Shown: positions 2,664 through 52,790 of the stretch, piece by piece
Position numbering within the stretch: the stretch's first letter is position 1
Layout: each line of letters begins with the position of its first letter
Assembly: GCF_006345805.1 (NCBI RefSeq)
Contig: NW_021833777.1
Location: forward strand, 1-55,163
Direction of reading: 5' to 3'
From: Octopus sinensis
Lineage: Eukaryota
DNA length: 55,163 nt
Translations under genes and position numbers: made by a program
Notes under the pieces: model-generated
The model's database searches: none
Told to the model about the DNA's origin: nothing
The model's input: the letters and a program-made list of their open reading frames with translations, nothing else

Positions 2664-3361
2664 ATGGCTGATAAAAACTACACTTTAAAACACACAAAAA
2701 GTCTATCTGAATACGCAAAATATTTAAGCAAAAAAAACACAAAAAAGTCAGAGAAAACAACAGCGGAACCCCTAAAGCAAAGAGATTTGAAGGTAATGAA
2801 CATGACTGACCCTAACAGCCTGATTTGGACTCAAAATTAGGGCAAATCCGTATGGTGACAGCCTCGGCACCCACCTCTTCCCAACCAGGGTACTAAAAGT
2901 GAAACACGCAGATATTTTTGCGAGGTTTGTGACTGCCTGATAAAGGACTCGACCAACTACCTCGACCATATCAACGGAAAAAAGCGTATTCCTCAAATGT
3001 GACCTCTGCAGACCAGAAGAACCTGGGAATGTCGATGAAGGTGGAAAAGTCGAGCGTCTCCCAAGTGCGTGAGCGAATCGAGGCCAATCGGATGTCGAGG
3101 CATGTCCCCGAGTACGACATCCATGAACGACTGGCAGTATTGTTAGAGGAGAAGGAGAAGAGGAAGGAAAATAGGAAGGAGAGGAGGAAGGAGATGAAGG
3201 ACAAGAAGAAGAGAGCAGTGGAAGTTGATGCAGATGGGGCGTATATTGCTTCTGTTCTCGGCTTCTCCTCCTTTGGTAAACGCACGGTCAATGCCCCCGA
3301 TGAAATTGAGGAACCAGATGTCGCCAAAATCATGGGATTTTCTGGTTTCGGTAAGCAGTGA
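2664..3361 (+). CDS. ZMAT2: Zinc finger matrin-type protein 2 (Snu23, U4/U6.U5 tri-snRNP component), 4 exons
   Basis: Removing GT-AG introns 2793-2818 (26 nt), 2890-2911 (22 nt) and 2986-3011 (26 nt) gives one open frame: ...[22 protein letters not shown]...[49 protein letters not shown]...MGFSGFGKQ*. The start ATG at 2664 is the best guess. Confidence 0.92.
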
Positions 3362-22911: not shown

Positions 22912-24548
22912 TTTTTTTTTTTTTTTTTATATTGTAACTATAATAAATTTACAAAACATGAAAAGGTTAGAATTATGTTTATGGGGGATATGTAGCCTGG
23001 CGGATTGCCAAACTGTTTCCCCGGATAATGGCAATCGAGAGCCGTTGCATTAGCCAGTTCGCCTCCCGAGGATCATGGGTGCGCATTGAGATTTTGGCTC
23101 CGAGCTTGCGCGAAGAACTTTTCAGTTTTTGGACCGAGAACACCCGACGTCTCCGCCGCGATCGGCACCACGGAAAACTTCTCCGAGAGGGCAGAATATT
23201 TTAAAAGCTTTAAATCTTCAGCCTTCTTAGCTGCAGATTTGGCCTCCAGGGCACACGAAGTTAAGTGAGAAGCAGAAAAGGTGTCGCAGCAGGTTGCGTC
23301 CCAAACGAGGCCTTTTCCGCCTTCGAAGGGAAAAAGGGTCATCCCGTCAGGACGTTTTCCGTCGCCGCGGTCAAGACCCGGTGGCTCGAGGACCGAAGGA
23401 AATCCCGCCGAGTCGAGGGCCCTCCGTATGATGTCGTTCATAGCAGAGTGCCTCGGAAAACGTCCGGCACTCCTCTTGCACGATAAAGGGTGCAGACCGA
23501 AAGGGTCAACAGTGCAGCCACAGCGGCACGTGTGCGGGACACATTGCCTTAGTCCGAGTCGCAGAGAGACTCCGATCCTTACCGCTTCATCGTCAAGGAG
23601 AGTGCCAGATGGGGCATTCGGGAATGCACAAAGCCAAGCTCCGCTAGCCGGGGATGCTGCCGACAGAAGGCAAGCGCGGCGGTGCTGGTTGGACGACTCG
23701 AGCAGCAGATTGAAAGATTGCTTGCATCTAATTCGATCCCAGGCTCGTTGAGACATTCGATCTTCCGGAAAGTCAAGGCCTTGTTCTCTCCAGACTTCGC
23801 TGAAATGAGCAACATTTGTGTCCAAGGAAAATTCAGAAAAGGAGCGTAGAATTTCCATGACAAGTGTGTGGCTCGCGGAGACGGAAGAGAGGTAAGCAGG
23901 TAACGGTAGGTCGGAACATGAGCGGATGCCGAGCCCTCCAAAAGATAACGGGAGGGTTGCCTGTCTCCAACCCATGTCGTCGAAAGGGGAATTGCATACG
24001 TTCTGAGTGCAAGTGCGGATAAGGAGGTCAATGGCTGAAAGCCTCTCTGGAAAATCAAAGCACGTTGAAGAGCGAAGCAAATAGGAGAGCTTTTGGATCG
24101 AGAAGCAATTCCGTAGGAGGAATAATGCAGTGTGCGAGTCCAGCTGTCTGATACGATCAAAAGCTTCTTCGAGAAAAAGTTCTTTTTTGCGTAGGGCCAC
24201 ATCGATAGAGTTGCCAGCGACCGGGGCTCCGAGAATAAAAAGTTCGTCAATGGGAGTAGATTGAACTCTTGGAATAAGATCGCAGAAAGAGGAAACAGCG
24301 TCTTCGAAAATAGATTCCGAGCATCCAAGGTTGGTAATTTCACATTTGGAGGAATTTAAAATGAGGCCGATTTTCTCCAGAGCCGGGATGATTTTAATTA
24401 TGTCCTGCAAGACGATGTCCGGAGGGCCACCGAGAGTGGCGTCGTCGAGATACCAGAGGTTCAATGGAGAAGATAGAAGTTTGGTCACCTTTAATAGTGG
24501 AGAACCCTGAGGGACCCCATTTGGTAATAGTCTCGATATATAAATCAT
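22912..24548 (-). mobile_element. CRE-clade non-LTR retrotransposon with a 491-aa open RT-to-RLE ORF and poly(A) tail
   Basis: WYLDDATLGG, LPLSFGGLGI, CxC/HPLSC..RH zinc knuckle, KRPDG..LVWDATC RLE; T18 tract at about 22912-22929 is the poly(A) tail on the minus strand. Confidence 0.92.
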
Positions 24549-25199
24549 TTGTGCTTTAAACTTTAAATAATTTTTCCCATCTATTTGTAACTTTTGCTAT
24601 TCGCATATGATTTAGATGGGCAAGCCCGACTCTTTCCTTTCAAAGTAATGACAGGTACTGGCAAAGTTGTGCCATAACTATTTGGTGATGATTCTCTTAT
24701 ATTCTTTTTTCTAGTTCAAAAGTCCTTTTCTTTGGTTCAACTCTGTTCCTGTAAGAAACAATCGTGCTTTTGAGAGTTTTGTATGTATGTTCTCTCTCAC
24801 TTATGTCAGAAAAACGTGCAAATTGTAGAAATTTTTGAGAGCTCTTAATTATTTTGGAAATTTATCAAAGTCTTTTTTGAATTAATCCAGTGTGCAAAAT
24901 TGTTTTGGTTATCTAAGTTTTCCTATTTGAAAGAATAATAAGTATTATTGATCAAATATATATTTCAGGAATGGTTTTGCTTAAACTTACTAAAAATGAA
25001 CTTGGAATAATCAAAAAAGTTCAACTAGATTTATTTTTATGAACCAATTAGAGAAATCTAAAAAAGATACAAAAAATTATCAGAACAGTTAATTTTTGAA
25101 GACTAAGGGATAATATACATAAAATACAAAAACCAGTGATTACGCATTTTAAACTGCAAACTATCGAAGTGATTGTTACATAATTATTTTAGATTGAAC

Positions 25200-25540
25200 A
25201 TATGACGAAATAATCAAATTCCGGAATCAGCGTTATTATTCTCCAAAGGAAATGAAACGGAGGAATTAAGTAAAATCAGAAATAACTATTTCAAAAACAA
25301 CGACAATTGTTTGAATCAACAAAGTGTATATGAAGATTTAGTCGTAGGAGACAATGTCCTACTGAGACACGATATTTATGAAAATCGTAATAATTGAAAA
25401 TATCCATATCTATGATCAAATAGATTCAACGAAATAACAAATATCCAAAGTTGATAAAAATACATGCGACTTAAAGATATGAATAATGATTTATTTAAAA
25501 ATGTTTACAAATGTTTTTAGTCTAAATGTATTAATCTACG
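25200..25540 (+). mobile_element. Probable Ginger-type integrase C-terminal remnant
   Basis: EDLVVGDNVLLRHDIYEN resembles NVGTTVLLR in the family B C-terminus; heavily decayed. Confidence 0.35.
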
Positions 25541-25869
25541 ACCAAACGGTCAGCGAGAGGAATAGATAAACCATTGAAACTTCACTAGACTGATTCTCTA
25601 GTAAAGCGATTCCCAGCCGGAGTTCTGCAAGATCTAATAAATTTCATTGCGGTAATTTATTGAGATCTATTTGTATGTGTTTGTTTCACCAACGTAAAAT
25701 TACAAGTGTAAATAATATCTTCATAGTTATGTCTTATTCTCTCGACCCTAAACACCGAAGAGTTTCTCAACAAGTCACAATAATTCAAATTACTTATGAG
25801 GCCGTATAGTCTCGCCCAATATTTCATCGAGTGAGTCCATCGTCCGAGGCTGCTTTCGGACATCTAAGC

Positions 25870-26930
25870 GATAAAATAAGTTGAGACGACTTTTGTCAAG
25901 ATGAATAAAATTAACCGACTCCTGATTATTCTTTGCTTCAAATTGAAACGCATTCGACTTTACGCGTTTGGCACAAAATGATGGGACGTTGATCTCCGCA
26001 TTATCTTGACAAAGGAGGCAAGATACTCCTCTTCAAGGGGACCTCCGGTAGATCTTGCCATCATTAAGAAGATGTCCTGTCTTTCTGTAAGATGGTCCAT
26101 TAGTTTTTTGACGTTGAGTGTATTTCTCAATTCCAAAGTCAGCTTCATTTTACCACGTTTCAGTAAAATCCGTAAGCACTGGTTCTGTACGACTTCCAGT
26201 TTGTTTTGTGCGCGTATTGACAGTGGCGTAATCCACGACGCACATGCGTGTTCAATTGTAGGCAGTATATATTGTTTGTATAATAACTCAAAATGAGGAA
26301 TAGAAGATATTGGAGATCTGGCAAAAGCTTTGAGAATTCCGATCTTCTTTGGATTCGTGAAACCAGTGACTCCACTTGATTTTTGAACGTCATTAATGGA
26401 TCGAATGTAACTCCAAGGATTGAAGGGTTCCTTTTAAGTGGGATTAGTTGTCCATCCCAAGTTATTTTTATGTCCAGTTCTGTATGTTTCCTGTATGAAG
26501 AGATAATCGTAGTGCTTGATTTCCCAGGTGATATCTTATTCGGTTTTTGAGAAACCATGGCTTCATACAATTAATCGTCTCCTGAACTTTCCGCGTGGCT
26601 TCTTTGTAATCTTGATGTTTTGCTGCAATAATTAGATTGTCAGCGTATGATAAAAGGATTGTATCTTCGTCGTTTGGATTTGGGAGATCTCTTGTAAATA
26701 ATTGGTTATAAGGAGAATCCTTGTGGGACCCCGTTTGGGAGATATCGTTGTTTTGATTTTCGGTTATTCATTATAACCTGTCTACTTCTGCTATTAAGGA
26801 AGTTCGCCAGCCATATCTTGATCTTCGGATGGATCCCAGTGGAGAAAATTTTTGATGTTGAAGTTTTCCTCGGTACTGAATCGAATGCATTTTCGATATC
26901 CAGAGCGACTAACACCGTGCAAGCACTGTT
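25870..26930 (-). mobile_element. APE-type LINE reverse transcriptase, decayed
   Basis: VALDIENAFDSV, YLPNGVPQG, YADNLI, PSILGVTFDPLMTFKNQV motifs; frameshifted. Confidence 0.85.
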
Positions 26931-28419
26931 AAATGCTTTAAAAGTAATAAAATAATGGTATATATTTTAGGTATTTAAATTTGTTAATAAGATCGGGTTA
27001 TGTCGGATGTAGATGATGATACACAGACCAACAATCAACTGAATTTTCACATTAAACAAAAACAGGATCTCATAAATATTTTAAATTCTGAATATAAAAT
27101 GTAATAATATTTTAATATTAATTTTGACATGCCGACGACCATTTGAGGTTTGAGTCACTCTACAACTCCCTCAATGAATCATCCTTCGACAGCAAAATAG
27201 AAATTGCTAAGAAAGAGTTGGCCGATCAGGAAGAACTATATTCCACGTTGATATTGTCGATAGTATCCCTTCTTTTCAACCGATAGACCAATTTAATAAA
27301 TGAGAAAGGCACTGAGCACGAGGGAACAATGTCGTGTTCTGACACAATCCAAGTATTTATTTATTGCTATTTCAAGACTCTTCTCGGTCTTTTCAGAACA
27401 TTTTCCTGCGTGTCTCTGAACAACTTCGACGTCCCTCCCTCGCCCTGGGTTGTCCAGTTGTTGGTGGATTTGGGTGTGTGCAGAATCGATCAGCCTAATC
27501 CAGAACTGCCGATTTTTAATCTTTACTTTCTACTTTGAGGACTGATTTTTGGGAGTTCTCTTTAGTGTGCCCCTGCTTTGCATTTTTTAGATATCATATC
27601 TACTCGACAGCAGCTAAGAGTAAGGATGACTCTTAGGATGCTTGTTAGTGATAAAGCTCGGTGGAAAGATTCTTCTTTGTATTAAGAAACAATTTGATAT
27701 CAAATACTGGTGGGAAGGAAGACCATGATTTGTTCTATGTCTTTTTTAGTGAAAGAATACAAGTTGCGTCGATTTGCACTACGAAAAGGATATTTTTGTA
27801 TTTTTAGTGTGCCTAAGTTGAAAGTTATTTTGGCTACCTTAACAGCATAAGTTTCGAAACCTGTATTTGCTGGTAATACTAATATTCAGAGGCCGACATG
27901 ACTGTTGAAAATCCATCATAATGATTCCATGGGATTCTTTTCCGTGTTGACGGATACTTTGGATTTTATTGATTATATCTTAACTGTGAATGATTAAATA
28001 TTTTATCTTTCAGTTCATAGTTGTGGAAATTTCACTTTTATAAATTAATTATATAAACTGACTTACATATAGGGTGATTCGAAAATAATGAATTTACACG
28101 ACTTTCTGGAATATAAGAAACTTTGTTATGTGCAGTATAGAGAGGCTCTCCTGAATCATGTCCGCAACAAACTGAAACAAGTGCGGGAGTACGACTGGAC
28201 GTACAGAGTAATGAACAGAATTGATTGAGGAGAGCGTTACTGCCATCAACAGTTATTTCCAATTTTGTTTGACTAAAGGGAATGCCAAAAAGGATGAATT
28301 GCAAGACATTATTGTGGTAATTTATTGGCACAGTCTAATCTTCGTTTGGAACATTAATTGTTCCAAAACAGAGGTTGCTCCAAAATCGTATAAAAATTTA
28401 CTATTTTTGTGTACATAAC

Positions 28420-28670
28420 TTCTTTTTTTTTTTTTTTTTTAAATGTTAATTTTTTTTTTAAACAAGAAAGAAATTAAGATAGCTAAGTTAATTAAAGGCC
28501 TCACGAGACACCCGGCCAGCCTCGCGAATGGCGAAGCTGTTCCCTCGGATTACAGCAATCGACAGACGTTCCAGGAGCCAAGAAAACTCTCTTGGATCGT
28601 GACTAGTCCTTGAAATCCGTCGACCGAGCGAGCGAAGGAAGCGGAGTGTCTTGGGGCCGCATAACTATAC
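28420..28670 (-). mobile_element. CRE-clade 3' end with poly(A) tail
   Basis: GPKTLRFLRSLGRRISRTSHDPREFSWLLERLSIAVIRGNSFAIR, followed by A-tracts (plus-strand T-runs near 28423-28458). Confidence 0.75.
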
Positions 28671-29420
28671 TCTGTTGATTATAAACCTTGGAATTTAACG
28701 GAAAACAAAAATTGTTTAAAATAATGAGTAATTTTTTAATTTTAAATTACGTATAAATTTTTTTTCTAAATTATAAAAATCTTTCAGAAAATCCAGCAAC
28801 ATATTTAAAACGTTTTTCTCAACTTTGTTCATGTCATTAATGGCTGTTCTTATAGTTACTTGTTTTCAATTGAAAAAAAATCATTTGATTGATTGATTGT
28901 TCATGGTCAAGAAAAATCAAAATCTCTCATCAGTTAAAGCTTGCTCCAAAGTTCAAAAACGAACAGCGGTAAAGCCACAGCCTTTTTGCGAACCCATCAA
29001 AGCTGAAGATCCCCCAGAACCTCCGAAGTCTACTGTGCCTCAAAAACACAGTGAGACCCAATCCCATCAGACGAAAACTGAGCCTAACACCTCAAGCCTC
29101 ACATATACTCTGAGTATCGAAAACCCGGCACTTGGAAAGATCAAGAGGATCAAGACCTCCTATCCAAGTCGCCAACTGCTTCCAAAGCCCGGATAACTTT
29201 GCAGAAATCCGGCACGTTCATCCTAAAATTCCGATCCCCCGAGGATGCTGTTGCTTTCAAAGCAGAGCTCTCTCAATCGAATATGTTTGGCGAAGGCGGC
29301 CATAAACTTGCCTCAGTAGCTGAGAAGGCCTCAGTCTTGGTCCTTAAAGGAATCCCTCATTGGATCTCGACAGAGGACCTTAACCTCCACTTGAGAGAAA
29401 GTCTACACCTTTTTGGTATC

Positions 29421-29760
29421 GAATATCCGAACTAGGATGTCAAATATCCGAACTGAGATGTCAGACGTCATTATTGTGGTTTCTAATATCCGAACTGAGA
29501 TGTCAAAGGTCATTACTGTGGTTTCTAATATCCGAACTGAGATGTCAAAGGTCATTACTGCGGTTTCTAATATCCGAACTGAGATGTCAAAGGTCATTAC
29601 TGCGGTTTCTAATATCCGAACCGAGATGTCAAACGTCATTATTGTGTTTTCTAATATCCGAACCGAGATGTCAAACGTCATTATTGTGTTTTCTAATATC
29701 CGAACCGAGATGTCAAACGTCATTATTGTGTTTTCTAATATCCGAACTGTGATGTCAAAT
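29421..29760 (+). repeat. Left arm: tandem 42-bp units (9 core copies)
   Basis: Unit AATATCCGAACTGAGATGTCAAAGGTCATTACTGTGGTTTCT; 7 full units plus a 21-bp starter and a partial unit. Confidence 0.95.
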
Positions 29761-30232
29761 GTCCGTTCCTATATTTTCTGCACAATAGTGAAAAAATGAT
29801 ATTTTTTAATGAAATCAATGTTAAGTTGCTAAATATTGTCATCGGGGATTAAATCGTTCATCTCGATAATACTTGGAAAATGTTTCTGCACATGATTGCA
29901 TGTGATGACAGGATTTTCCTCAACATAGTTTATCATTCTCGATATTTCATTGTCTGTAATTTTTGACCATCTGAATCCTCCACGTTTTTTATTAGGTTGT
30001 GAAGCATTTCGTATCCATTTATAAGCTGTATTTCGCTTAACTCCATTCGATTCCGCCACAATATGCCAATCTGCATCTTCATTTTCATAAGCAGATATAA
30101 TTCTCATTTTGGCTTCCAAATTTGTTTTATTATATGTTTTACTAACACGAGAAGAAGTATTCATAGTTTTAGCAAAAGTATTCATTTCGAACGAACAAAA
30201 ATCCATTTATATTTTTTTAGATACGTAATTTT

Positions 30233-30847
30233 GACCTTTGACATCTCAGTTCGGATATTAGAAACCACAGTAATGACCTTTGACATCTCAGTTCGGATAT
30301 TAGAAACCACAGTAATGACCTTTGACATCTTAGTTCGGATATTAGAAACCACAGTAATGACCTTTGACATCTTAGTTCGGATATTAGAAACCACAGTAAT
30401 GACCTTTAACATCTCAGTTCGGATAATAGAAACCACAGTAATGACCTTTGACATCTTAGTTCGGATATTAGAAACCACAGTAATGACCTTTAACATCTCA
30501 GTTCGGATAATAGAAACCACAGTAATGACCTTGACATCTCAGTTCGGATATTAGAAACCACAGTAATGACCTTTGACATCTCAGTTCGGATATTAGAAAC
30601 CACAGTAATGACCTTTGACATCTTAATTCGGATATTAGAAACCACAGTAATGACCTTTGACATCTTAGTTCGGATATTAGAAACCACAGTAATGACCTTT
30701 AACATCTCAGTTCGGATAATAGAAACCACAGTAATGACCTTTGACATCTCAGTTCGGATATTAGAAACCACAGTAATGACCTTTGACATCTCAGTTCGGA
30801 TATTAGAAACCACAGTAATGACGTTTGATATCTCAGTTCGGATATTT
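30233..30847 (-). repeat. Right arm: tandem 42-bp units (15 core copies), inverted relative to the left arm
   Basis: Reverse complement of the same unit; one copy near 30530 has a 1-bp deletion. Confidence 0.95.
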
Positions 30848-31823
30848 GATACCAAAAAGGTGTAGAATCGGACTTCAAGTTCGAAAGATTCTCTCGCAAA
30901 GGAACCGATATGCCTGTCGGCAGACTCACGCTGGATTCCAGAGCCGAGGCCAACACCCTCATCCGCTTTGGAATAACTGCGGGCTTCAGCCATATCCGCT
31001 GCGAATGGCACAAGCCCTCAGCAACGAGATGCTTCCGTTGCAATCAGTTTGGACATACGTCCTACAGATGCTCCGAAAAACTCCGTTGTCTCCTCTGCGG
31101 TAAAGAACACAGGCACAAAAACTGCCCGAGTTCCAAGCCGAAACCAGGTGTCCCAGCTGCAAAAACCTGCATTAACTGCAAGAACACTGGGCACTTGGCG
31201 TGCTACGGTGGATGTCCGTCTGCCAAAGCAGCAACAGCAGCCTCAAGGGTTGCGAAGAGCCCACAGACTAAAAGCCCAGTACGCTGGGTAAAAGCCGAAC
31301 CGATAGAATCAGTCTGGACAAAAGGGTCTCCCCCAAGTCCGTCCAAAGTCGATGTCTCTATTCAGACGTCGCCGGCCCCCAGCACACTCACAAGCGCGGA
31401 GTCAAACACTAATGAGTGCCATAACTCAGAAGTAGTCCGCTCGGCTGTCCCTCATAAGAGGAGAAAAACCCACCGTGACAAAGCTTTGTCACAAAGAAGA
31501 GCCCACTCGGATCAGGACCTACACAACAGAGATTCCCAACTGGAAGTCTTCCGCTGGTGTATAGGAGCCCTGACCAAACTAGGAGTGGATATGAATATGC
31601 TGCAAGAGCTCCTGCTAGAAGGGAGCAATTCAGCAACATAGCCACTATTAACTCTGGCTCACGACAGATGAATTGGACGCAAGCTCAGAAGAGTTCAGTT
31701 GCCTTGGCATCAGTCTCGTCCTATCACCGTCCTTAATTCCTGTCACTTTCTCTTTCTCGGTTAATTACAATAAACTTGATTGATTGATTGTCTTTATATT
31801 AATTGGCCTTTTAAAGTTATTAC

Positions 31824-33324
31824 TAGGGCAACATAAGTCAATAAAGTCAACTTCAATCCAGAGTTAGACTTAAGTCTAAAAATAATGATTAAATTAAAAT
31901 AAAGTCAAAAAAAAATTTATATAAAAAGTTTTTTAGGTCAATTTGGTCAACTTTTTAGATTTACAGGTCAATTTTTTTAATTAGGTCAATTTTTAAATAA
32001 AAATTTAAATAATATTATTTAAAGCATCAAAATAAATTTAAAATAGTCGCAGTGACATTTGTCTCTTATTGTAACAAATTTTAAACTAAATTATAGTGTA
32101 CTTATGCCTAAAAATAAACCTTCGGATTTTAAAAAAGCTAAAAATATTTGTGAAAAATATCCTAAAGAGTTTACAATTACACCAAATGGAATGCTTTTTT
32201 GTAAATTATGTGAGTTACATGTGACATGCAAGAAACAATTTTTTGTGAACAAACACAGGGAAACACAGAAACACTCTTCCCGAACAAATAATATATCCAC
32301 AAATAAAAAACAATTGAATATTGTTCCTCCAAATTATGTCTTCAGAAATTTTGCAACAGACGTAACAGAAGCATTTGTATCCGCAAACATTCCGTTCTAT
32401 AAATTGAGAAATCGAGCAATTATCAACTTATTTGGAAGTATCGGGCATTTCTGCAGGAAATACTCTCAAGCTATTATATTCCACTCTATACCATATCACA
32501 TGTTTTGCTCATTTAGTGCATAATTGTGCACTTAAAATAAAAGTATATTATCCCGAAGTTGATAAATTGATTGCTTGTATCAAAGCACTTGTTGTAAAGA
32601 ACAATTATCGAAGACAATTGTTTAAGGAAATTGGGTACCCACCAGAACCAATAGTTACGAGATGGGGAAGCTGGCTTAAAGCTGTTTCTTACTATGCTAC
32701 AAACCTGCCAAATGTTATTCAAGTATGCACTTCCTTAGAAGGAAATTCTTTGCTCATTAAAAGAGCGAAAGAATGTTTATTTAATGAACATCTTCATGAA
32801 GATCTAACGACGATAATATCACAATATTCACCTTTATTACATTTGCTTGATGATTTAGAATCGACCAATTTTACTATAAAAAAGCATTCAAGTATTTGAA
32901 AACATTGGATTTTAAAGAAGACGTGTGTGGAATAAAAAATTATATTACCAAAAGGATGAATTCCAATGATATCACAAAAATTATGAATTTCGATGATCAT
33001 TCCATTTCACCTTTAGATTATTCTTTGTTGATTGAATGTCAGGCAACATCGTGCGCAGTAGAACGATCATTTTCGGTTCTTAACAAAATCTTAACCAAGG
33101 ATAGGAATTTTAAAGTGGATAATGTACAATATTACTTAATTGTAAATAACTCGATAAACGATGAATAAAATTACTTTAAATTTTCATAAACGTAGTTTAT
33201 ATATGAAAATAAAGTAGTATTTTTACGGTCAATTATTTGGTCAATTTTTAAAATTTTAAGGTCAATTACATTGACTTTTTAAGGGCAATTTTTATTTTTT
33301 TAAGTCAATAAAAATGTTGCTCTA
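31824..33324 (+). mobile_element. hAT (Ac-like, CGGBP1-type transposase) element, internally deleted
   Basis: TIRs TAGGGCAACAT / ATGTTGCTCTA; exact 8-bp TSD GTTATTAC; subterminal (g/a)gtcaa repeats; LFCKLC..KH zinc finger, HITCFAHLVHN, VTRWGSW, CAVERSFS; catalytic mid-region deleted near 32445. Confidence 0.92.
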
Positions 33325-33416
33325 GTTATTACTAATAATTTGCTATGTAGTTGCCATAGAAACACGTAAAAGGACAGGTTGCCCATAGGGGCCTGATCAA
33401 CCATGTCACATATTAA

Positions 33417-33667
33417 ATTTTTTTTTTTTTTTTTTAAATCCAATTTTTAATTATTGAAATAAGTTAGTCAATGATTAAAAGGCACTTGCGGTTGCACGCA
33501 TGATGGAGTGTGCATTGCCGCGAACGACAGCTATTCCAATTTGTTGGAATAACCATGACACTTCTCGAGGCTCCCCACGTCGCCTAGCAACTTTTCCTCC
33601 GACTTCTCTGATGAAAGAAGTCGTAAGAGGGCCGGTTATTCCAGAAGTCAAATCAGTCAAGTCAAAT
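33417..33667 (-). mobile_element. CRE-clade 3' end with poly(A) tail
   Basis: GPLTTSFIREVGGKVARRRGEPREVSWLFQQIGIAVVRGNAHSI; T-run at about 33417-33435. Confidence 0.8.
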
Positions 33668-33760
33668 AATTTATTCCAGACGTATTAATCTGCTAGTTAT
33701 TGGGAGAAAATTAGCACAATTAAATTAATAATATTATTAAATTAATAATATTTTTAACAG

Positions 33761-34005
33761 AATTTATTTGTGATCATTGTGGTACGTCTTTTCCACCAAA
33801 ACGATCATTACACTCACACAATCAAAATATGTCTTCATTGTGCAATACGAATAAAAAACTAAAAGTTTTTACTTGCGAATTTCCTCTCTGCTTAAAAAAA
33901 TATACAACAAAGTTCAATCTTCAAAGCCATATAAATTGAGTACATAAAGGGGTCACTTTTCCTTGTAAATTTGGAGATGGGTGCTCTTTGACTTTTTCTT
34001 CTAAA
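33761..34005 (+). pseudogene. TFIIIA-like C2H2 zinc-finger exon with an in-frame stop
   Basis: AG- and GT-bounded exon FICDHCG..H..FTCEFPLCLKKYTTKFNLQSHIN*VHKGVTFPCKFGDGC; YTTxFNLQSHI matches the TFIIIA (GTF3A) finger signature. Confidence 0.65.
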
Positions 34006-34639
34006 GTAAAATTTATTCTACTAATATGATAACAAAAAATGAATGAACATATTATTTTGACTTGATTTTAATAAACTAAACTTTTATTCAGTTCAATTTG
34101 TTCAGCAAAGACATGTATATAGGATGTATATTTGTAAATATAGTTCCTCATAAAAAATTGGATTTGTACTGTTTATATAGGATTAGATTTAATGTTCTGT
34201 TACTAGTGGCTGATGGCATCACCATGTTCCTGAAGGAATAGTATTGAAGGTAACCTATGCTATTTAGGTGACGGAATAATTAGAGAAAGCTTTGAAACTA
34301 TTTTGTGGAACGCTTGGATTACTTGTGTTGAATTTTGACAGTAAAACTTTGAATATTTCCCGATTAATGAAATTCGATGTCTCAAACATACCATACAGCA
34401 CGGAAGTTGAGCACAATATTGAATTAATAAATTTGAACGGAAGGATTCCTGATGAATTTTGAAACGATGTGCAATAAAATATGTCAAATACAAAGTGTCA
34501 TCACCCTAAACATCGCTGACGTTCGTAAAGCTGCTAAAATCTCTGCAATCGTTGGAGGGAATACGGGAGAAGTCTCAATTTAAAAACTGTGTGCCAGTCC
34601 ATATATGTTGAAGCATTGTGCGTAGGCAATTGATGGTTC

Positions 34640-35000
34640 GAAGTATTGGCGGTAAATATTCGTTAGTACCGGGTGTGACCCGTTTTTCTATAGGCCGGAT
34701 AAAGTTCTGAGGATGTTAATTTTTTTTCTCATTTCCGAAGGAGGTTGTCTGCGTGCGGGAGAAGTAGAAATGCATGCCGAGGGTTACCTCTAGGACCGTC
34801 TGACACCTGTAGAAAGGTACGGATACGTTGTTCAGCTTTAAGTCGACTGAAGTCCTTCCCAATCTTATGTCGGAAGTGAAAAGTGACGTGGCGGATTTCG
34901 GGTTTACCACGAGTCTGTTGTCCGTCAGCCATAGGTTTAGCCGATCCAAGTTAGCTTAGAGCCTTTCAGAGGCCCTCTGGATGTCCTGGTCCCGTGTCAA
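34640..35000 (-). mobile_element. APE-type LINE fragment
   Basis: DRLNLWLTDNRLVVNPKSATSLFTSDIRLGRTSVDLKLNN, paralog of 18343-18600. Confidence 0.8.
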
Positions 35001-35819
35001 AAAGGAAACTGAGTTCTTAAACCAAAACAATTTATTCCAGACGTATTAATCTGCTAGTTATTGGGAGAAAATTAGTCTTCTTTAAGAGGAAGAAATAAAG
35101 AAAACTAATACTTTATTTTCAGTCAGTTACGATTTTTTCCTCACTTTCCATGTTGTCTTCATACAAATGATTTGCGTCAATTATGAAACTCCCGGCTGAG
35201 TTTATCTCTTTTCAGGGATTTTGATTATATTCTTGGTTTGAACATCATACTCTCCAGTGTTTTCGTCAAGACTGTATTTAGATCCAAGTTCCTACTTCAA
35301 TAGACAACTTTTCAATGTAGAGGTCAAACCTCTATTGCTCGACACCTTTTTTCAAAAAATTGAAAATTTCTAAAGAAACCTCCATTGCTTGCCAAATTCT
35401 AAATCTCACCGCTATTTTTCAATGTTAAAAATTTTTTTTAGTTAAACTATCTTTTAATATGAAATAATCTTGACGGCGCTTTATTTAACATGCGAAAATG
35501 TATCAGACTGACGTATAATGATAAAAGACACATAATAGCCTACATCGATGATAACATACATATAATAGAACATATAGCATCTGCTTTTTCTTCAATTTTA
35601 AGAAAAAAATTTAACCAAGATCAATCAATGATCCCAGAATTGAGAAAAAATACTTGATAGTGATTCTTTTTTTTCAAGCAAAAAACTTCCATTTATTTTA
35701 ACATATTCAACTATTAATACAGAAGTTATGACATGAATGGAACATATCAAACTTTGTGGGGATTCATTGACGACAATTCCATTTTTTTGAACGGGAAAAA
35801 AGTTCCCGATCTACACGGA

Positions 35820-36050
35820 TTCATTGATTTCAAGGGTAGCAATGGGTGGCTCTATAAATCCAAGAAACGAGCAATATAAAGTTAAGAACTTTTCACGGAT
35901 AGTCTTATATGAGTGACATAAACCTTGAAGATGAAATCAATTGTTTTATTTCAGTGATTTGCACAAAATTGGAAAAATATGAACCTGAAAATATTTATAA
36001 TGAAAACAAAATAGGAATATTCTGCAAAACGTTTAAAAAGTTTTTTTAAA
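35820..36050 (+). mobile_element. pogo-like transposase remnant
   Basis: FKGSNGWL..KKR and YEPENIYNENKIGIFCK (compare FKASNGWL and IFNIDETCLF at 54368-54712). Confidence 0.55.
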
Positions 36051-36099
36051 AAATTCGCCCAGGCTGAAGAATCGGCTTATTTTATTTCTTATATTTTGA

Positions 36100-36640
36100 A
36101 TGTTCAGTCCAATCTGTTACCACCAATGAATTTGTAGAAATTCGAGTCGATAAAAACCTACCGACTGATAATTCTATCCAGAATAACAAGCCAGACATAT
36201 TTTTTCATGACAAATCGAGCAACACAATTACTCTTATCGAAGTTGAGACCACTTCAAAGATTTGTCTTGAGCAGGTCGAAGTGGAAGTACGATTTGGTGG
36301 CGAATGGACTGGGAGCATCCACCGGGCGAAAGTAAAGATCGTTCCTGTCGTCATGACCTAACGGAACAGTGTCAAAATTCTTCAAAAACCATCTGGCGGT
36401 GCTTGGCATGGAGGACAGGGTGAAGGCATACATCGAGACACTGGTGTTGCGGAAGACCTTAGAAAGCATGCAAGCCGAGACAAGGCACGTGTTATTGATG
36501 CCTGTTAAAGAGGTAGTTCCTGAATCTAGACTCTGCGTTGACATGAATCTTCCCATCGGTGCATTATACGTGGGCCCTAAGAGAATGAGTTTGATGTAAA
36601 AAAATACTACAATTACAATAATTACAATAATAACTAATAA
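36100..36640 (+). mobile_element. R2-like RLE retrotransposon 3' fragment
   Basis: EIRVDK..NNKPDIFFHDKSSNTITLIEV..KYDL..KIVPVVMT..HLAVLGMEDRVKAYIETLVLRKTLESM; simple-repeat tail at 36600-36640. A second C-terminal remnant lies at about 35170-35400 on the minus strand. Confidence 0.8.
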
Positions 36641-36889
36641 TTGCGTGTTCTTTTCAGAGTTAAACTTTATTGCTAATATATGTTACTTTGCACTTATTTT
36701 CCGAGGCGTGGTGACAACAATATTTTTTTAGATTAAATGATATAAATATTCAACTTTTCAAGCATAAAACCATTAATCGCTCCAACCAAATTCGAAATAG
36801 CAATGAAGATTAAAATCACTTGCACCGCAAAAAACAAAATAACTGCTAATTCGGTAGTTATGTCACCAGGAAGGATTGATATACAAAAA

Positions 36890-37050
36890 ATAAATTGGCG
36901 ATGTCGGACTCGCAACCGTTGGCGATTCCCCCCGAGTTGGTAAGGAGCAAATTCTGAGCTGAGGCGGGGGCATACACTCTTCGCTGCCAATTTAGCAGTC
37001 AAGTGGAGGAAGTAGTTTCCAATTGGTATAGCCAAGATTAATTGATTTAA
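36890..37050 (-). mobile_element. CRE-clade RT fragment
   Basis: LAIPIGNYFLHLTAKLAAKSVCPRLSSEFAPYQLG, a degenerate version of RPIAVG.TLRRL.AK....L.P.QLGVG. Confidence 0.55.
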
Positions 37051-37358
37051 AATCATCTTTTTCAATAATCTGGTTATTATTGAATCCTTGCTCTCTCTAA
37101 AGGTGAGAATTACTGACATTCAAAACTGTTTTGTAATAAAAATAAAGTTTTTTTCATTAATTATTATTAATTATCTTAATTTTAAAATGGTAAACCTAAT
37201 ACCTAATAAATTAAGCCACGTGTGAGCACGCTGTCGATTTACTTTGTGGTGCTCTCTTAATTATTTGCTACGCATTATTTTTTTATCTTAATTGGATTCA
37301 GAAGGAATAATACAGATGTATTTTCTTTTAATGATTTAATTATTTGAAAGTTCATCAT

Positions 37359-37850
37359 TTTTGTGATATTTTTCGATTTTATTCCTTTAATCTCCTTTTT
37401 TTGACTTATTTATACTTTTTGTGATATTTTTCGATTTTATTCCTTTAATCTCCTTTTTTTACTTATTTATACTTTTTGTGATATTTTTCGAGTTTGTTTC
37501 TTTAATTTACTTTTTTACTTATTTCTATTTATATTTTTTGTGATATTTTTCGATTTTGTTCCTTTAATCTCCTTTTTTTACTTATTTATACTTTTTGTGA
37601 TATTTTTCGAGTTTGTTTCTTTAATTTACTTTTTTACTTATTTCTGTTTATATTTTTTGTGATATTTTTCGAGTTTGTTTCTTTAATTTACTTTTTTACT
37701 TATTTCTGTTTATATTTTTTGTGATATTTTTCGAGTTTGTTTCTTTAATTTACTTTTTTACTTATTTCTGTTTATATTTTTTGTGATATTTTTCGATTTT
37801 GTTCTTTTAATCTCCTTTTTTACTTATTTATACTTTTGTGATATTTGAAT
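37359..37850. repeat. AT-rich minisatellite with two unit types (about 58 and 62-64 bp), 8 units
   Basis: Each unit starts ttttgtgatatttttcga; order A A B A B B B A. Confidence 0.9.
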
Positions 37851-37859
37851 CTTATATAT

Positions 37860-38530
37860 TGTCACAGTCAAGACGTGAGCCACGCCGGGCGTGAGTCACT
37901 TTTCAAAAATTTATAGTACTTTTTTAATAATTTTCCCCTCTTCATTTTCTAAATCTAATGTGCCTCCGTCACGTCAACTACAAAAATTTCGGAATGATAC
38001 TTTTTTGGATTATGTCACATGCACAACGGGCTTTACGCTTTGAGCGCACATTATTGATTCGCTAATAAATAATGATTGATAACCATATGGGTGTATATAA
38101 TTATACAAAAGATCAGCACCAGATGAAAAAATTCTGCCAAAACTTTTATACTGAAATAATAAAATATAATATGAGGTTAAAATTAGCTTATAAATTTAAT
38201 ATTGTAATTATTTTTAATTTTATATCTATTATCTGTTTTTATGTCATTTAATAAATTTTACAAAAAACTCAAATACAAAAAGATGATTCGTTATGCTACT
38301 GGAACTTGAATTTTTATTAAGTTCCTACCTTTTTTACAAAAAGTTTCACACTGCGATATCGGTGTTTAACCCTCAAATTGAAACAAATTTTTAATAAAAA
38401 TTCAAAAAATTAATAATTTTCTTTTTAAGCCGATGAATTTGAATTTTATCTTTTGAGCCATCTTTTTTCTCAATCTCAGCATAGTTATTTGAAAAAATCT
38501 GAACAATTTTAACCGGAAATTAAAGGAACA
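37860..38530 (-). mobile_element. Right-end remnant of a Ginger/TDD-like element
   Basis: TGTCACAGTC terminus at 37860; integrase C-terminus-like VKIVQIFSNNYAEIEKDGSKDKIQIHRLKK at about 38390-38520; the other end was not found. Confidence 0.45.
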
Positions 38531-38534
38531 AATT

Positions 38535-39841
38535 ACTGGTCTTCTGCGCAAGATCTTCTCCCGGGCTTCAATTAAAGCACTTTAGAGAGGTTCAGCGCAT
38601 CGCACATTACCTCGATGGACCTTTCAGTATTGTAATTACTAAAAAGTTCACCGTATTTACCCACGAGGATGAACCCCATAGTATCGAGGGAAGCCTTGGT
38701 TTTGCCGTCATAGTTGGCTTTGATGTAGTCCCCTATGATTGGCGTTGACGAGTCTGTAATACTGTAGCCAGCTAGGCGTTGTTGCCATTGAGCTTGGGAG
38801 AGTCCTAAACAAAGTTTAGGCAAAGTTCTCAATGGGTTCTGGAAAGAATTCACTTCGTATGGAACCTTGTCCAAAAAGAAGTATCTTCCCAGAAAGGGCA
38901 AACTCCCGGGAGGGGAAGTCTCCAAACCCACAACTTTACCCAAAGCTTCGTTCATGAAAGACAAACGTCGCTCAGGCAACTTACTACAAAGTAGATCATC
39001 TCCATAGCATAGGCTATCCATGGACGATATCGGAAGATGAGGATTGTGCGTCAAGAAGGCTTCACTAAGCCAAAGATTAAAGTGATTCACCACCGTATTC
39101 ATATCAGTTGTAATGGGAGAGCCGGTTAGTCGTGCGTACTGATAGTTGAACTTTTGCTTCCGGCCGTCGCAATTGTTCAAGTACGTCGATTGGTTTACTT
39201 CGTTGCAAAGCAATCTAACGACTTCATCAGCATATTCAGGGAAGGCTAACGTATACAGGCGCTGCTCTAGGTAGGTTGTTAACCGTGGAATCCCATGCCG
39301 AATAATCATAAGACGTGAAGCCCTTAAGGATACATTCTTTCACACGAGAAGCAATTTTCTGCGGCCCAAGTCCAGGGCAGTAAAAACCATGTTTGGACAA
39401 CACCTCGTCCTTAAATCGATACGAGAAAGCAGATAGCCCCAAAGTTTGGCTAACATGCTATTGATTGATTTGACGAGGTGCTTTGGAGGGTTTTGCAGGC
39501 TCCAACTTGACAAAAGAGCGAATCGGTGTCAAGAAAGGTTTCCACATAGACCCTCCGTTCCTAAAATTGGAAATTCTGACCCGCTGGAGGGCCTTATTTT
39601 GCCGAGCAGCAACATCCTCGGGTTCAAAAGGGACCAAATGGCGCCCTTTAAGAAAATCCAAGAGTTGAGCTGCATAACTCTCAACAAAAGGGAGGTACAT
39701 TTCAAAATCATGAACGTCGACCACGCACATCGTGTTATTGTACGAAAGATGCGGGTGGTGTGTTAACGTATCGGCAAGCTGATGGTTGGTTATATTTGGA
39801 GAATTCTCGGTGAGCTTAGGCCCATATTCGCCGTAGGAAGG
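38535..39841 (-). pseudogene. Endogenous viral element: nodavirus-like RNA-dependent RNA polymerase
   Basis: Colinear noda-type RdRp: EDVAARQNKALQRVR, FVKLEPAKPSKAPRQI, LSAFSYRFKDEVLSKHGFYCPG, motif A DYSAWDSTV, motif B RLTGSPITTDMNT, motif C YGDDL, FLGRYF, PLRTLPKL, DSSTPIIGDY; one TAG (39458-39460), frameshifts near 39280 and 38580. Confidence 0.9.
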
Positions 39842-39889
39842 TTTTTTTTTTTTTAAAAGAAAATGAGAGAACAAGAATCCGAACTAATT

Positions 39890-40260
39890 AAGAAGAACAT
39901 TGTCTCCAGAAAACCCTTTCCATTGAAGATCCAACAGGGAATGTGCACAAGTCTGAGTCGTCGCCGTTCGTTATGTTCGGAAAGGGGAGTAGAACCGACT
40001 CCGTTACAACAGACATATGCATAGATCTGAAGGAAATCCTTAGATTAGGTGATTCTGGTGGCCAACGCAACACACGCGTGTAATTAAGAAGATCATTGTC
40101 TCCAGAAAACCTTTCCATTGAAGATCCAACAGGGAATGTGCACAAGTCTGAGTCGTCGCCGTTAAGTTCGGAAAGGGGAGTAGAACCGACTCCGTTACAA
40201 CAGACATATGCATACATCTGAAGGAAATCCTTAGATTAGGTGATTCTGGTGGCCAACGCA
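39890..40260. repeat. Tandem duplication, about 175-180 bp copies with 196-bp period
   Basis: Near-identical copies at about 39890-40068 and 40086-40260; one minus-strand frame reads WPPESPNL, resembling Tc1 WP.qSPDLNPIE. Confidence 0.85.
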
Positions 40261-40324
40261 TCACAGTAATAGAAACCAACGGGCGCAGCTTTATCCAAGA
40301 TATTTTACTTTACCAGTAGTCAAT

Positions 40325-40555
40325 TTAATTAATAGAAATGCACAACACAGGAAGGTTTTGGAGTTTCATCAACGTCTGGATGGAGCTTAATATCCAAACC
40401 AGAATAAGTTGGAATATTTGGTTTAACAGACCAGACCCGATTTTTTTCTCCGTCGAGCACTTATTTAAATAACTTCTGATAATTTGCGATATTGTGCCGA
40501 GCAATCTTTTGGTGATATCTTGTATTTCTCTGTCTGTTTTTCCAGATTTATACAT
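40325..40555 (-). mobile_element. Tc1-like transposase N-terminal HTH remnant
   Basis: KSGKTDREIQDITKRLLGTISQIIRSYLNKCSTEKKIGSG resembles the Tc1 paired-like HTH ending in (R/G)SGRP. Confidence 0.55.
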
Positions 40556-42259
40556 GCTAATTATTCTCCCTTTTTCTTCAGATGTTCAATGACTAGCCAT
40601 GTAGAGAGATTACAAATTTGATTTATTTTACGAGTCCAATATCGGTATCGCCGCAGATATCAATGCAGTTTAATCTTAGCATCACAAATGAGTTTATCTG
40701 GAAAAGCCAAAGTGTCTCCCTTCTCTCTAAACTGTGTTTCAAAATCTTTGCTTTTCCACCGGCAATATCACTCGTCTAGAAAATGATATTTCGAATTAGA
40801 ATTAGTTCACAATGATAAAATAAATATAGTACCTCTAATGTTAACTTTTTGTTAAATTTAGTGACATTAATAATTGATTTTTAAAAAATAATGTAGGTTA
40901 TTTTTAGATTACCATTACATTCGATTCAAAGATGACACTGCTCCTTAAACGTCCCTATACCTCTACCCAAATTCCATTCTTTGAATAAATCTAATAACTA
41001 ACTTTTTAAAGCACCAGTACCCGTTATTCTATTTTGACATGAACAACCTCGTGCTGACATGAACCAACTTGTATAATTCTGCTCAAAATTTTTATCTTTC
41101 TCTCATTTGACCAAATAATATTATTTAAAATTGGCATATTTTAACCGTGCATGGCGTGATTCTTAATAAGCAGCCGAACTTTACGTGGACGACATTTATG
41201 AAATCCTTCTATTCTTGGGGCATTTGTAACGATCTGTGAGCATACTAGTGATCCCACCTCGCACAAGTAAGTAGAGAGTTGTTTAAGAGATAGTCTCGGA
41301 TTATTAGCACTTTTTTGTCTTATTTTGGTAGTTTTTAATAATTTCTATTTATTGATAATGTTTTATACTGTACTCTTCGGAATATGAACCCTTTAGAAAT
41401 TTTTCCGATTGATTTTCAAAACTAATCGGCACTTAATATTCCAGCTCTTGAAAATAAATGAAAACTTTTTCTATCAATTAAAATAATTTTGTAATTTTTT
41501 TGAAGGGAGAGAGGTGCGTGAAGTGTCATCCTCTGCTCACTTCGAAGGCTCTGGACTTAGAAAATTACTTACTTAATTAATTTCTTTTTATTAATAAACT
41601 TAATTTTTTAATGATCTATGATGTAAAAAAACTATGTGCACTTTTATCTTTTTGAAAAATAAATAAAAACAGTTATGACTAATTTGACCCAGTGTATTTT
41701 CTGCACGCCTACTCTTCAAGACTATTTATTTTTCCTCTGTTTTCATTAAAAAATTCTTAATTCTTCCATAAGTGCTTCTTTGTAATATTCGAGTGCCACT
41801 CCTATTTGTAATAAGCCTTTATTTCTTGACTTAGATGGAATATTATCAATGCTTTAATTCTTCGATGTCTTCATTTTCTTTTTTTCGTCTTTGTTTTTCA
41901 TGATTTGCATGTTTTCTCCTTTTTCAATACTGAGCAATAAAGTATCTAAAAAAATAGTACTTGCCGAACTGTTTCAATTTTCAGATTTATTTAATAATGG
42001 GGTCTGCCTGGTTTTCTACTTTTAACGAGCAAGTCTATATTTGGAAAAGCAACGTTACTTTCATCCAATATATTGTTGTTGATTAGGTCATTAACACGTG
42101 ATAGTTCGGAGAATTTGTCTGAATCAATTGAAGATTCCATATTGTAATTTTAATCCGCACCTCTCGTAATTTGATACTTTCTGCGTCGTAGCTTTTTTTA
42201 TATGATTTTAGCATATTAATTACTGTAAATCACTATAATTTATTTTAACTGCCGATTAG

Positions 42260-43320
42260 TTTTAATTTATTTTGCGAAAATTTTTAATTTATTTGAATTA
42301 AACGAAATCATCAAAAAAAACTAGCTATTATGAACTGGCTCGCAGGAGATTGAAAAGACATTCCCGCGTAAACAGCCAGCGAGATCCTCTGAGTAAGGAA
42401 TATAAATTCCCTCGGATCTCTGGAGCGGTGGGTGCACAGGCGGCCAAGTTTCTTAAGATGAGCAAGCGTCTTGCCCCAAAAACACAGAGTTTCGACGGCA
42501 ATTGCCCAAAAGCAAAATCGATCGACTAAATCCTCATATTTCGTTAGTTTGCGAATTTGGCCTTCTCGGCCGACGAACCGGGTCGACAAGCCGTAGCATT
42601 TAAGGCACCCTTGGCGAAAGAGTCGGAACAGGAGACGTCCCAAACGAGCTGTTTCCCGGATTCAAAAGCAAACAGCGTACAGCCGTCTGGACGTTTTTCA
42701 TCTTCAATAACAAGGCCCGTCGGTTCCAGAATACAAGGGAAACCAGCTCTTTCCAGAGCTTTCTGAATTAGGTTGTTGATTTCGGTGTGCCGAGGAAATC
42801 GGCCGGCGCTCATTCGACAAGACAAAGGATGTAGCCCAAAGGCGTCAACTTTATCCCCACAACGACATGGCTGAGGTCTGCAGACAGGGAGTCCAAGGCG
42901 ATTACAGATACCCAGACGAAGTGAATCCCTATCGAGGACAGTATCCAAAGCGGAGAAGGGAGAACATTCAGCCAGGAACCTGAGTATGGCTGACAAGCGG
43001 ATCGGAAACAAGCCAGTCTGTGTTGGTCGAGGAGTGGTCTCCAAGTCAGTTGAAGATCGACGGCAAAGAATTTGTCCCAGTCTCGCTGAGAAAAGACATC
43101 GGAAGGGACTTCAGAGAAATGCGTTTCAAAAAGCGAGGCCCGAATCAATATCAGAGTCCAACGATGATTCAGGTTTTTTTCCAGAATCTTTTGGACAAGA
43201 AGATATGATCCAGACGCCGAAGAAGGAAAGGCAGGAAGAGCCAAAAAAATATTGCGAAATATTGTAAATATGATTTCAATTATGTCTAGTATTGACACTA
43301 ATCAATACTTTACAATCTGA
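42260..43320 (-). mobile_element. CRE-clade non-LTR retrotransposon, 5'-truncated and frameshifted
   Basis: SQRDWD, SGSWLNVLP, RLGLPVCRPQPCRCG..HPLSCRMSAGRFPRH, KRPDGCTLFAFESGKQLVWDVSC, QRISLAV. Confidence 0.88.
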
Positions 43321-50918: not shown

Positions 50919-52790
50919 TTAGACGACTCTCAAATTTTTGTTCTCAGAGTTCATCATGACTCCACTTTGATCGTTTCCGCCATGATCCTCAATCTCCTTC
51001 TGTGGCGTGCAGTCTCTGGGTCTCTTAAGGGACTTGCTGATCTTCATAGAGAAATTATATTTCAGCCAGTCCCCATTTACGGAATTTGCAGAGTCCAGGA
51101 TTTCACTGAAGCCATGTTTGTACTCGACAAACATGCTCTCCAGAGTGCCCTTCAGCGTAACAATCTGGATGTAAAAACGAACACGTTCTTAATCCCAAGG
51201 AGCTCCATGTACGTGCGGTAGAACGTTGAGACGATTCCATCCCACGTAATAACGATTGGCACAATCTTCACCTTAGCTTTGTGAATCACCTTTAATTCAC
51301 AAGCTAAAATGTTGTATTTATGCAATTTTTCTACTCCCACACTCTTTAGACTATCTATTGAAGTCACACCCACTTTAATAAGCCATATTACGTTCTCTTT
51401 TTTATTGTAGAGCAAAATGTCGGGTTTGTTATATTGTATGTCACCGGTTTTATAGCCCACTGGGTTGGATAACCACCTACTGCCATATTTTAATAATAAT
51501 ATTTTTCATATATTTAATTTCATTGGAAAAAATGATTTTCTTAATTATTTTAATAATTTATTGTTCTTTTTTTTAAATATTTTAGCGTGAAAACTATAAC
51601 TTTTTATTAATAAAGTTTAAAAACTGTGAAAATAAATAGGGTTGTTCAATAAAGTTCAATTAGAATATGGTTCTTTTGAAATTAACGACAAACCAACTTA
51701 ATGAAATAAAAAATTTTGATGACACCACTACTATATACGATAAAGAGAAAAGGAGAAGGCTCAGGACGCTTAAAAATCGTTTTTGCTTCAAAGTTCCTGA
51801 AAAAACGTATATAAAAGTCGGAAATAATAAACTGGGTTTTTTTACTCTAGAAGAAAGTGAGCTAAAGTTAAAAATTATTGAGGTATCCATCTTAAAACAA
51901 TTGAAGATCGAGCATATGAATACTCATTTGGTAGAGACAGAATGCTCTTGTTACTAAGAGACCAAATATATTCAGCAACAAGGGGAAGAAATTTGTAGTG
52001 TGATAGCAAAATGTGTCTATTGCCAAGTAATGTTGTTAATCAGTGTTAGTCGAAAAATTTCATGGCAACAAAACCAACTATCACCCCCATAATTGCAAGG
52101 AATTTTATCAAGAAATTGTTTACAAATATAACACTACACAACATGAAACTACGAAATGGGCGCCCTTCAAAATTTTTATGGGGGATAAAAGAGATTCGGA
52201 GAGAACAGAAGATCAAATAAATGCATTGTTAATGTTCGACGGAACAAATCCAAAACTAAGTGATGAGTTAAATTCGAATTATTTTGAAAATGACGATAAA
52301 AGAACTGAGAAACAAGTGCATGAAAACCTTGTTAAAGCTGGAGAGAAAATGAAAAACGTCGTAAGTGGAAATATAAGATAATGGAGAAACAGTAAGTAGA
52401 TTGAATTTAAGTAGATTAAAAACGTAGATTAAAAAAATTTGATTAAAATTTTGATTTTTTTTAAATGAATTAATCTTATTTTTTATTGACTCCCATTAAA
52501 TAAATAAAATTTTATTTATTTTAAAAATGTAAAGCAGAAATGAATGATGTGGTGATTATGCAACAGGCAGAAATATAAAAAAACTAATAAAAAAGAAGAA
52601 AATCAAAGTTAATTATATTTTCTGATGATTTTTAGATTATATTTATATTTTTTTGGTAGTTTTTTCGATGGGGGTTATCCAACCCGGTGGGCTATAAAAC
52701 CGGTGACATTGTATTTTCAACTCTGTTGGAATTGTTGTATCAACTCGTATTTCTTAATGTCTTCAATGTACTCAAGATTTTCTATATTAA
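50919..52790 (-). mobile_element. R2-like RLE retrotransposon 3' fragment, split by a Ginger family A insertion
   Basis: Removing 51439-52708 plus one TSD restores EIRVDTTIPTELKIQYNKPDILLYNKKENVIWLIKVGVTSIDSL..EKLHKY..ITWDGIV. Confidence 0.85.
51439..52708 (+). mobile_element. Ginger/TDD-like element, family A, non-autonomous deletion derivative (1270 bp)
   Basis: TIRs TGTCACCGGTTTTATAGCCCAC; 5-bp TSD TTGTA; integrase N-terminus (..CVYCQ|SKNFMATKPTITPIIARN) joined to C-terminal YNTTQHETTKWAPF, DDE core deleted; intron 52027-52049. Confidence 0.92.

Follow-up and report, generated by a model that had tools for sequence, protein, structure and literature searches.

The window analysed here is the whole of contig C10248, a stretch of 55,163 nucleotides filed under Octopus sinensis in an assembly of 2.72 Gb and 13,516 contigs, which was the assembly searched. 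Positions 38523-39841 are a decayed piece of a noda-like RNA-dependent RNA polymerase (RdRp). Viral coding sequence is joined to host repeats on both sides, making the element a non-retroviral endogenous viral element (EVE). Its borders were set by repeat matches that end at 39842 and at 38517-38522, and the 3′ border is approximate (39841 to about 38523, minus strand). The window contains the following features:

2781..3361, plus strand: partial host gene for ZMAT2/Snu23; its GT-AG introns measure 26, 22 and 26 nt
22922..40428, no strand assigned: 17.5-kb TE-rich block holding the EVE, absent from the collinear haplotype C8744
36412..38012, minus strand: repeat R1, truncated, and the array downstream of it, from repeat comparison
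38009..38522, minus strand: 3′ half of a host repeat of more than 1.1 kb, inside which the viral 3′ end is joined
38523..39841, minus strand: endogenous noda-like replicase fragment, spanning the fingers, palm and thumb of the RdRp and the start of a C-terminal extension
39461..39841, minus strand: segment 1, pre-F region and motif F, closed by the in-frame stop at 39458-39460
39278..39457, minus strand: segment 2, YRFKDEVL..YCPG block and motif A, followed by a frameshift near 39275-39280
38581..39276, minus strand: segment 3, motifs B, C (GDD), D/E and thumb, followed by a break near 38575-38580
39842..40290, minus strand: SINE-like host repeat in two tandem units, its A-rich tail abutting the viral 5′ end

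Read along the minus strand, the element carries RQNKALQRVR, motif F (FVKLEP..KAPRQI), the YRFKDEVL..YCPG block, motif A (DYSAWDSTV), motif B (LTGSPITTDMNT), motif C (YGDDL) and FLGRYF. The first-pass annotation of this DNA had listed the RdRp motifs in this order; all are found, as are the RQNKALQRVR and YRFKDEVL..YCPG blocks that it had called typical of Nodamuvirales protein A and that Nodaviridae protein A indeed possesses. Its count of one stop and two frameshifts holds in part. The stop is also present in short-read contigs of runs X1 and X2, and the frameshift near 39275-39280 is carried by X1 contigs, giving two read-supported lesions in 1.3 kb. At the break near 38575-38580 an X1 contig disagrees with the assembly, as X1 contigs also do over three small indels at 39741-39759, and both places are probably assembly errors or another allele. 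The window copy is unable to encode a working polymerase.

The predicted polymerase is closest to nodavirus protein A. In the PDB, the best match of the piece spanning motifs B to E is a 1011-residue viral RdRp (E 6e-7), which we take to be Flock House virus protein A; segment 3 matches the RdRP_1 profile at E 0.008, below cut-off. Among 1.84 billion representative proteins, the B-E piece has 208 matches at E<=0.001, five at 1e-10 and none at 1e-30. Mosinovirus protein A heads the 150 matches listed, whose identity over part of the palm does not exceed 43%. The piece spanning motifs F to A matches 118 of these 150, and a reversed-piece control matches none (0/150). A domain scan of 25 of the 150 found Noda_Vmethyltr in 22 and RdRP_1 in 24. 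Eight of 20 looked up by name are named, including Mosinovirus, Hubei noda-like virus 10 and Tetnovirus 2; the other named relatives are two bat-associated nodaviruses, two Riboviria sp. and one Siedleckia transcript, and none of the 20 could be identified as a Sinhaliviridae (Lake Sinai virus-type) RdRp. No relative was found in IMG/VR contigs, and a word-seeded search with the F-A piece of a sister copy scored none of 279 candidates, which is weak evidence. No match pointed to a cellular or retroelement polymerase. The proposal of a fossil noda-like virus that had escaped characterisation is thus borne out on both counts, by the top relative with the capping domain in 22 of 25 relatives and by the identity ceiling of 43%. 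Of 159 proteins, 145 cover the RdRp core; 86 of them (named and best ranked) were combined with four EVE rows into a quick tree of 90 rows without an outgroup, in which three EVE rows fill only about 35% of the columns. The four EVE rows form one clade at 100%, with a stem of about 3.1 changes per site and no sister.

Contigs of run X1 cross both junctions into host repeats (38488-38955 and 38926-39882), the 3′ junction by 30-35 letters only, in agreement with the earlier claim of endogenisation. X1 is possibly the source run of the assembly, so that these contigs exclude a join error and yet are not independent. The change from viral sequence to host repeat is abrupt at both ends. Dispersed copies of the SINE-like repeat end in A tails, several with target-site duplications. 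The family measures about 260 bp with 5′ truncations and also occurs as tandem arrays of about 190-bp units on other contigs; an Rfam scan of 36000-42500 returned no family for it, only two chance-level matches. Contig C8744 is collinear with the window (92-97%), but in place of the window's 17.5 kb it contains about 2.5 kb, free of viral sequence; the element is therefore not fixed. As C8744 misses the whole 17.5-kb block, neither a clean empty site nor a target-site duplication was seen for the window copy. C8744:50184-50694, considered as an empty site, was rejected as a dispersed repeat copy off the collinear path.

Run X3, which carries another organism label and belongs to another study, yields a 251-nt contig over 39356-39603 with 11 differences (95.6% identity). 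Eight of the 10 differences listed fall at third codon positions (p=0.003) and the stop is not carried, which points to a sister strain, free or integrated; this sister suggests that the lineage is recent or still circulating. No RNA run is listed among the runs with element sequence. A recent integration, as the first-pass annotation had it, is supported by the two lesions in 1.3 kb, the absence from C8744 and the X3 sister. Its GC argument fails: GC is indeed higher in the element (0.455) than in the 1-kb flanks (0.243 and 0.378), but it lies below that of the host TE reading frames and the host gene in the window (0.49-0.52) and hence gives no insertion date. A low-depth X1 contig (record 4) is 86% identical to the element over window positions 39032-39274, an interval for which genome searches gave no copy as close; it is probably an insertion of another strain. 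Run X2, listed as 'DNA?', comes from the same sample as X1 and comprises 106 million letters of contigs, which cover the element partly, at depth 2-3, and include no junctions.

The window copy is one member of a family. Four protein searches of the genome place noda-derived pieces on at least 25 contigs, none of them chromosome-scale. Between the window and other copies, pS is 0.74-1.02 and pN 0.03-0.29 in 11 of 11 comparisons, whereas of two duplicate pairs that served as controls, one (C8311/C11710) shows a difference of about 1% at most and the other (C12598/C6250) one of 4-5%, with a dN/dS of 0.68. Synonymous saturation together with conserved amino acids between copies shows that they diverged while still viruses and stem from many separate integrations of different strains; the low dN/dS is between strains and predates integration. 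Positive-strand RNA viruses are usually endogenised once or not at all; here one such virus entered one germline many times, from different strains, which suggests a long-running infection of the host group. Many copies contain stops and frameshifts, and some sister copies keep long open frames. A LINE with a 13-bp target-site duplication lies inside the viral sequence on C8311 and C11710 and must have arrived after integration. This LINE was rejected as the capturing element on account of its own target-site duplication within viral sequence.

A second, rhabdo-like EVE family occurs on C12637, C10696, C12598, C8311, C11397, C4523, C12699 and other contigs, with N-like pieces on about 28. Its G piece matches PF00974 (28 bits) and its L piece matches PF00946 and PF14318. 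Rhabdo-like N, G and L pieces often adjoin noda pieces. On C12598 (L054:1500-2370) the noda frame passes into rhabdo N-derived sequence without a visible spacer, and the duplicate on C6250 has the same last noda codon and a different continuation.

Sister copies reveal more of the parent virus than the window fragment does. In these copies a hydrophobic stretch and a capping domain precede the RdRp, which is followed by some 330 additional residues; on C8999 the capping domain scores 63.5 bits against Noda_Vmethyltr (PF19222, cut-off 30), outside the window fragment and collinear with the RdRp pieces. Nodaviridae protein A (Mosinovirus, Hubei noda-like virus 10, PDB 8fm9) has the hydrophobic stretch, the PF19222 domain and the same RdRp motif blocks. 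In contrast to that family, the EVE lineage is at most 43% identical over part of the palm, sits on a stem of about 3.1 changes per site, and has some 330 residues without a match plus a collinear capsid-like region in place of a separate RNA2. The extension has no match in Pfam, the ESM Atlas or 151 relatives (0/151), and within it a D-x-x-C and a later His are conserved. An OTU protease was considered for this region and is unsupported (model pLDDT 52, three blank fold searches, hhalign probability 2%). A basic, Met-started region 3′ of the extension is in frame on C7755 (502 kb), C12598, C6250 and C6343; a stop precedes it in the decayed C7755 (562 kb) copy, and on C2489 the frame is not kept. 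On C7755 and C2489 a capsid-like region follows the replicase; we take its pattern to be that of S-domain capsids, a motif-level call, and it has no Pfam or PDB match. A collinear capsid-like region after the replicase argues against a bipartite genome with an RNA2. The parent virus was probably monopartite and hence is not placed in Nodaviridae proper, so that the earlier label "noda-like" stands as an affinity and not as typical membership of the family. Monopartite noda-like viruses have been published (PMC7508674, PMC11596407). In the accessible parts of these papers, they combine a noda-type MTase-RdRp with a downstream S-domain capsid or ORFan on one RNA, some also with long C-terminal extensions of unknown kind. 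They are described there as dicistronic, whereas four copies here keep the replicase and the downstream region in one frame; the search of the extension against the 151 relatives gave no sequence link to them.

Contig C10248 lies outside the main 2.7-Gb genome. Two types of ZMAT2 occur in the assembly, namely a copy on chromosome-scale C13 with kb-long introns and a compact, divergent type. The best C13 exons are 86-89% identical to a nemertean protein, and the compact type reaches 43-48% in its main exon. The compact type is found five times at 97.6-98.3% DNA identity (window, C8744, C8884, C8720, C12299). Two kinds of ZMAT2 and several compact copies indicate that the window stems from a second, co-assembled animal represented by several haplotypes. 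The tiny-intron host of the first-pass annotation is thereby upheld, with introns of 22-31 nt, and supplemented by a co-assembled animal that it had not foreseen. The haplotypes of this second organism differ widely in TE content. On EVE contig C8999 lies an innexin (100 bits) interrupted by an intron of 31 nt. Tiny introns also mark the compact Piwi-domain genes on C9497 (L127), C8702 (L128) and C12468 (L132), which score better to the PIWI-type exon of the main genome than to its AGO-type exons, clade labels that we presume from motifs. A microsporidian host was dropped after the innexin, Piwi-domain and ZMAT2 results. GC is 35% in the window and 33-39% at 14 EVE loci. Among animals, introns this short are reported only for dicyemids and myxobolids in the accessible part of PMC13644364. 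The available text of PMC6736024 gives a GC of 36.7%, a repeat share of 49% and introns averaging 38 bp for Dicyema japonicum, and that of PMC6543705 gives a median intron of 27 bp and many innexins for a Dicyema sp. Compared with dicyemids by these published descriptions, the second organism is very probably a dicyemid. A literature search covering few subscription journals found neither this element nor any dicyemid virus. Should the host indeed be a dicyemid, the phylum Dicyemida would have here, within the literature searched, its first records of viruses, from two virus groups at once. Viruses or EVEs credited to a large host from such assemblies or from renal transcriptomes may accordingly be those of its parasite.

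How viral RNA reached this genome may be read from a recurrent neighbour. R1 is a non-coding mosaic repeat with a constant downstream part and a variable upstream side. It is represented by L025:1009-1106 and 42 other matches and includes a CRE-derived piece; its upstream cargo is viral, LINE or satellite. Thirty of the 43 matches were fetched, with a query from an EVE locus and a panel that included proteins of these loci; viral coding sequence lies upstream of R1 in 11 of the 30 loci and in nine of 16 upstream classes, five of the nine known beforehand. These upstream viral pieces, from two unrelated virus groups, are all in coding sense (p=0.004), and none of 17 control 10-kb stretches contains such viral sequence. 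C13496 has one G piece on the opposite strand, some 1.4 kb downstream of R1. R1 follows within 700 nt downstream at four of 25 noda loci against seven of 238 control tiles (p=0.013), one of the four having supplied the R1 query. The window is one of these four, via a 510-bp intervening fragment, and the same 1.5 kb of R1 and array (87-92% identical) stands directly 3′ of another strain's noda piece on C13496. Neighbouring fragments at 17 loci, screened with a panel without LTR proteins, are co-oriented in 21 of 41 cases for the RT type and two of seven for transposases; this lack of strand bias among the retroelement fragments leaves a uni-strand cluster unsupported.

A virus without a DNA stage needs a host reverse transcriptase (RT) for a DNA copy. 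The bias at the R1 junctions would fit a non-LTR RT that switches templates, or insertion in a fixed orientation at a target repeat. In the explanation that we hold to be likely as a whole, the window copy is a non-functional EVE, of a deep-branching noda-like virus, and came from an infection of the parasite through capture by a candidate RT. A monopartite noda-like positive-strand RNA virus lineage would long have infected the parasite assembled alongside, which is probably a dicyemid. From time to time the RT of a retroelement, most likely of the non-LTR kind, would copy viral RNA and switch template between it and a host repeat or other RNAs, and the cDNA would integrate in germ cells, in the window with the outcome SINE tail, virus, repeat. 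The window copy, young and unfixed, would decay like any TE fragment, and any effect would be as a small-RNA source. Repeat-anchored, strand-biased junctions make such a capture mechanism testable.

Nodavirus EVEs have been published before, and an RT origin has also been proposed for the nodavirus-like eBxnv-1 of Bursaphelenchus xylophilus (PMC5177903). That element is likewise a truncated noda-like RdRp in an invertebrate genome, polymorphic between strains and ascribed to copy-choice by a retroelement RT. eBxnv-1, however, arose once, within a Bel/Pao LTR element, and keeps a 570-aa frame open (PMC5177903); the present family derives from many strains, is spread over 25 contigs and has broken frames, its neighbours are SINE-like and non-coding repeats, and rhabdo-like pieces lie alongside. 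The EVE clusters of Aedes aegypti, as far as the accessible part of their description goes (10.1101/127498), resemble it in placing fragments of several virus families side by side and co-oriented with a repeat; the present case differs by having a non-coding mosaic repeat as its recurring neighbour and no strand bias among the nearby non-LTR fragments. What is new here is the recurrence, along with the host and the lineage of the virus; EVEs from nodaviruses were known already, as were monopartite noda-like viruses.

Other accounts of the locus have been weighed against RT capture in an infected parasite. That the sequence is an assembly chimera or cDNA contamination is very improbable: depth is low (8.7-12.6) and the element has indel disagreements with short-read contigs, but contigs cross its junctions, stops and frameshifts recur in many copies, a sister copy houses a LINE with its target-site duplication, and duplicates diverge neutrally. 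Least credible is a domesticated, functional RdRp gene, which intact catalytic motifs and the long open frames of some sister copies might bring to mind. The read-supported stop and frameshift precede motifs B and C, there is no start, one haplotype lacks the element, and the low dN/dS is between strains and older than integration; for the window copy this reading is refuted by the stop, the frameshift, the missing start and the haplotype absence. An infection of the large host animal, with the viral RNA entering the parasite or being reverse-transcribed there, or with the contigs themselves being those of the host, has in its favour that the parasite is bathed in host tissue and meets host viruses, and that the assembly mixes both genomes. 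We nevertheless judge it quite unlikely, as the noda matches all lie on 25 high-numbered contigs (9-854 kb for those fetched) and none on chromosome-scale ones, the EVE contigs checked for genes (C10248, C8999, C8702) have tiny introns, and repeated germline capture of many strains would point to replication in parasite cells.

A further possibility, that R1 anchors the capture of viral RNA and the resulting loci feed piRNAs against circulating noda-like and rhabdo-like viruses as an antiviral memory, draws on the two co-oriented virus groups upstream of R1 (11 of 30 loci, 0 of 17 controls) and on the compact Piwi-domain genes of the host, nearer PIWI than AGO. piRNAs from endogenous virus copies are also reported in a mollusc in the accessible part of PMC6085071. 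This reading is unlikely all the same: at 21 of 25 noda loci the 700 nt downstream contain no R1 in the same orientation, five of the nine R1 classes with viral sequence correspond to EVE loci known beforehand, RT mechanics alone suffice for the orientation bias, and the neighbouring retroelement fragments have no strand bias (21/41), unlike the Aedes clusters in the available text of 10.1101/127498. Doubtful to a somewhat greater degree is its fullest form, a dicyemid virome archive in which R1-anchored RT capture of deep-branching monopartite noda-like and rhabdo-like RNA would feed, through PIWI, a heritable antiviral memory in a 30-cell animal. Its noda-like virus would have replicase, possible protease and capsid in one frame.

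Two further classes of sequence are visible in the window. Non-LTR fragments with restriction-like endonuclease motifs, which we take to be CRE-like and NeSL-like, occupy 23073-24596, 42311-43301, 17584-17940, 36068-36682 and 51152-51505, and such fragments are abundant on small contigs. Tandem arrays lie at 29384-31043 (short units with open frames on both strands) and at 37316-37883 (57/62-bp units).
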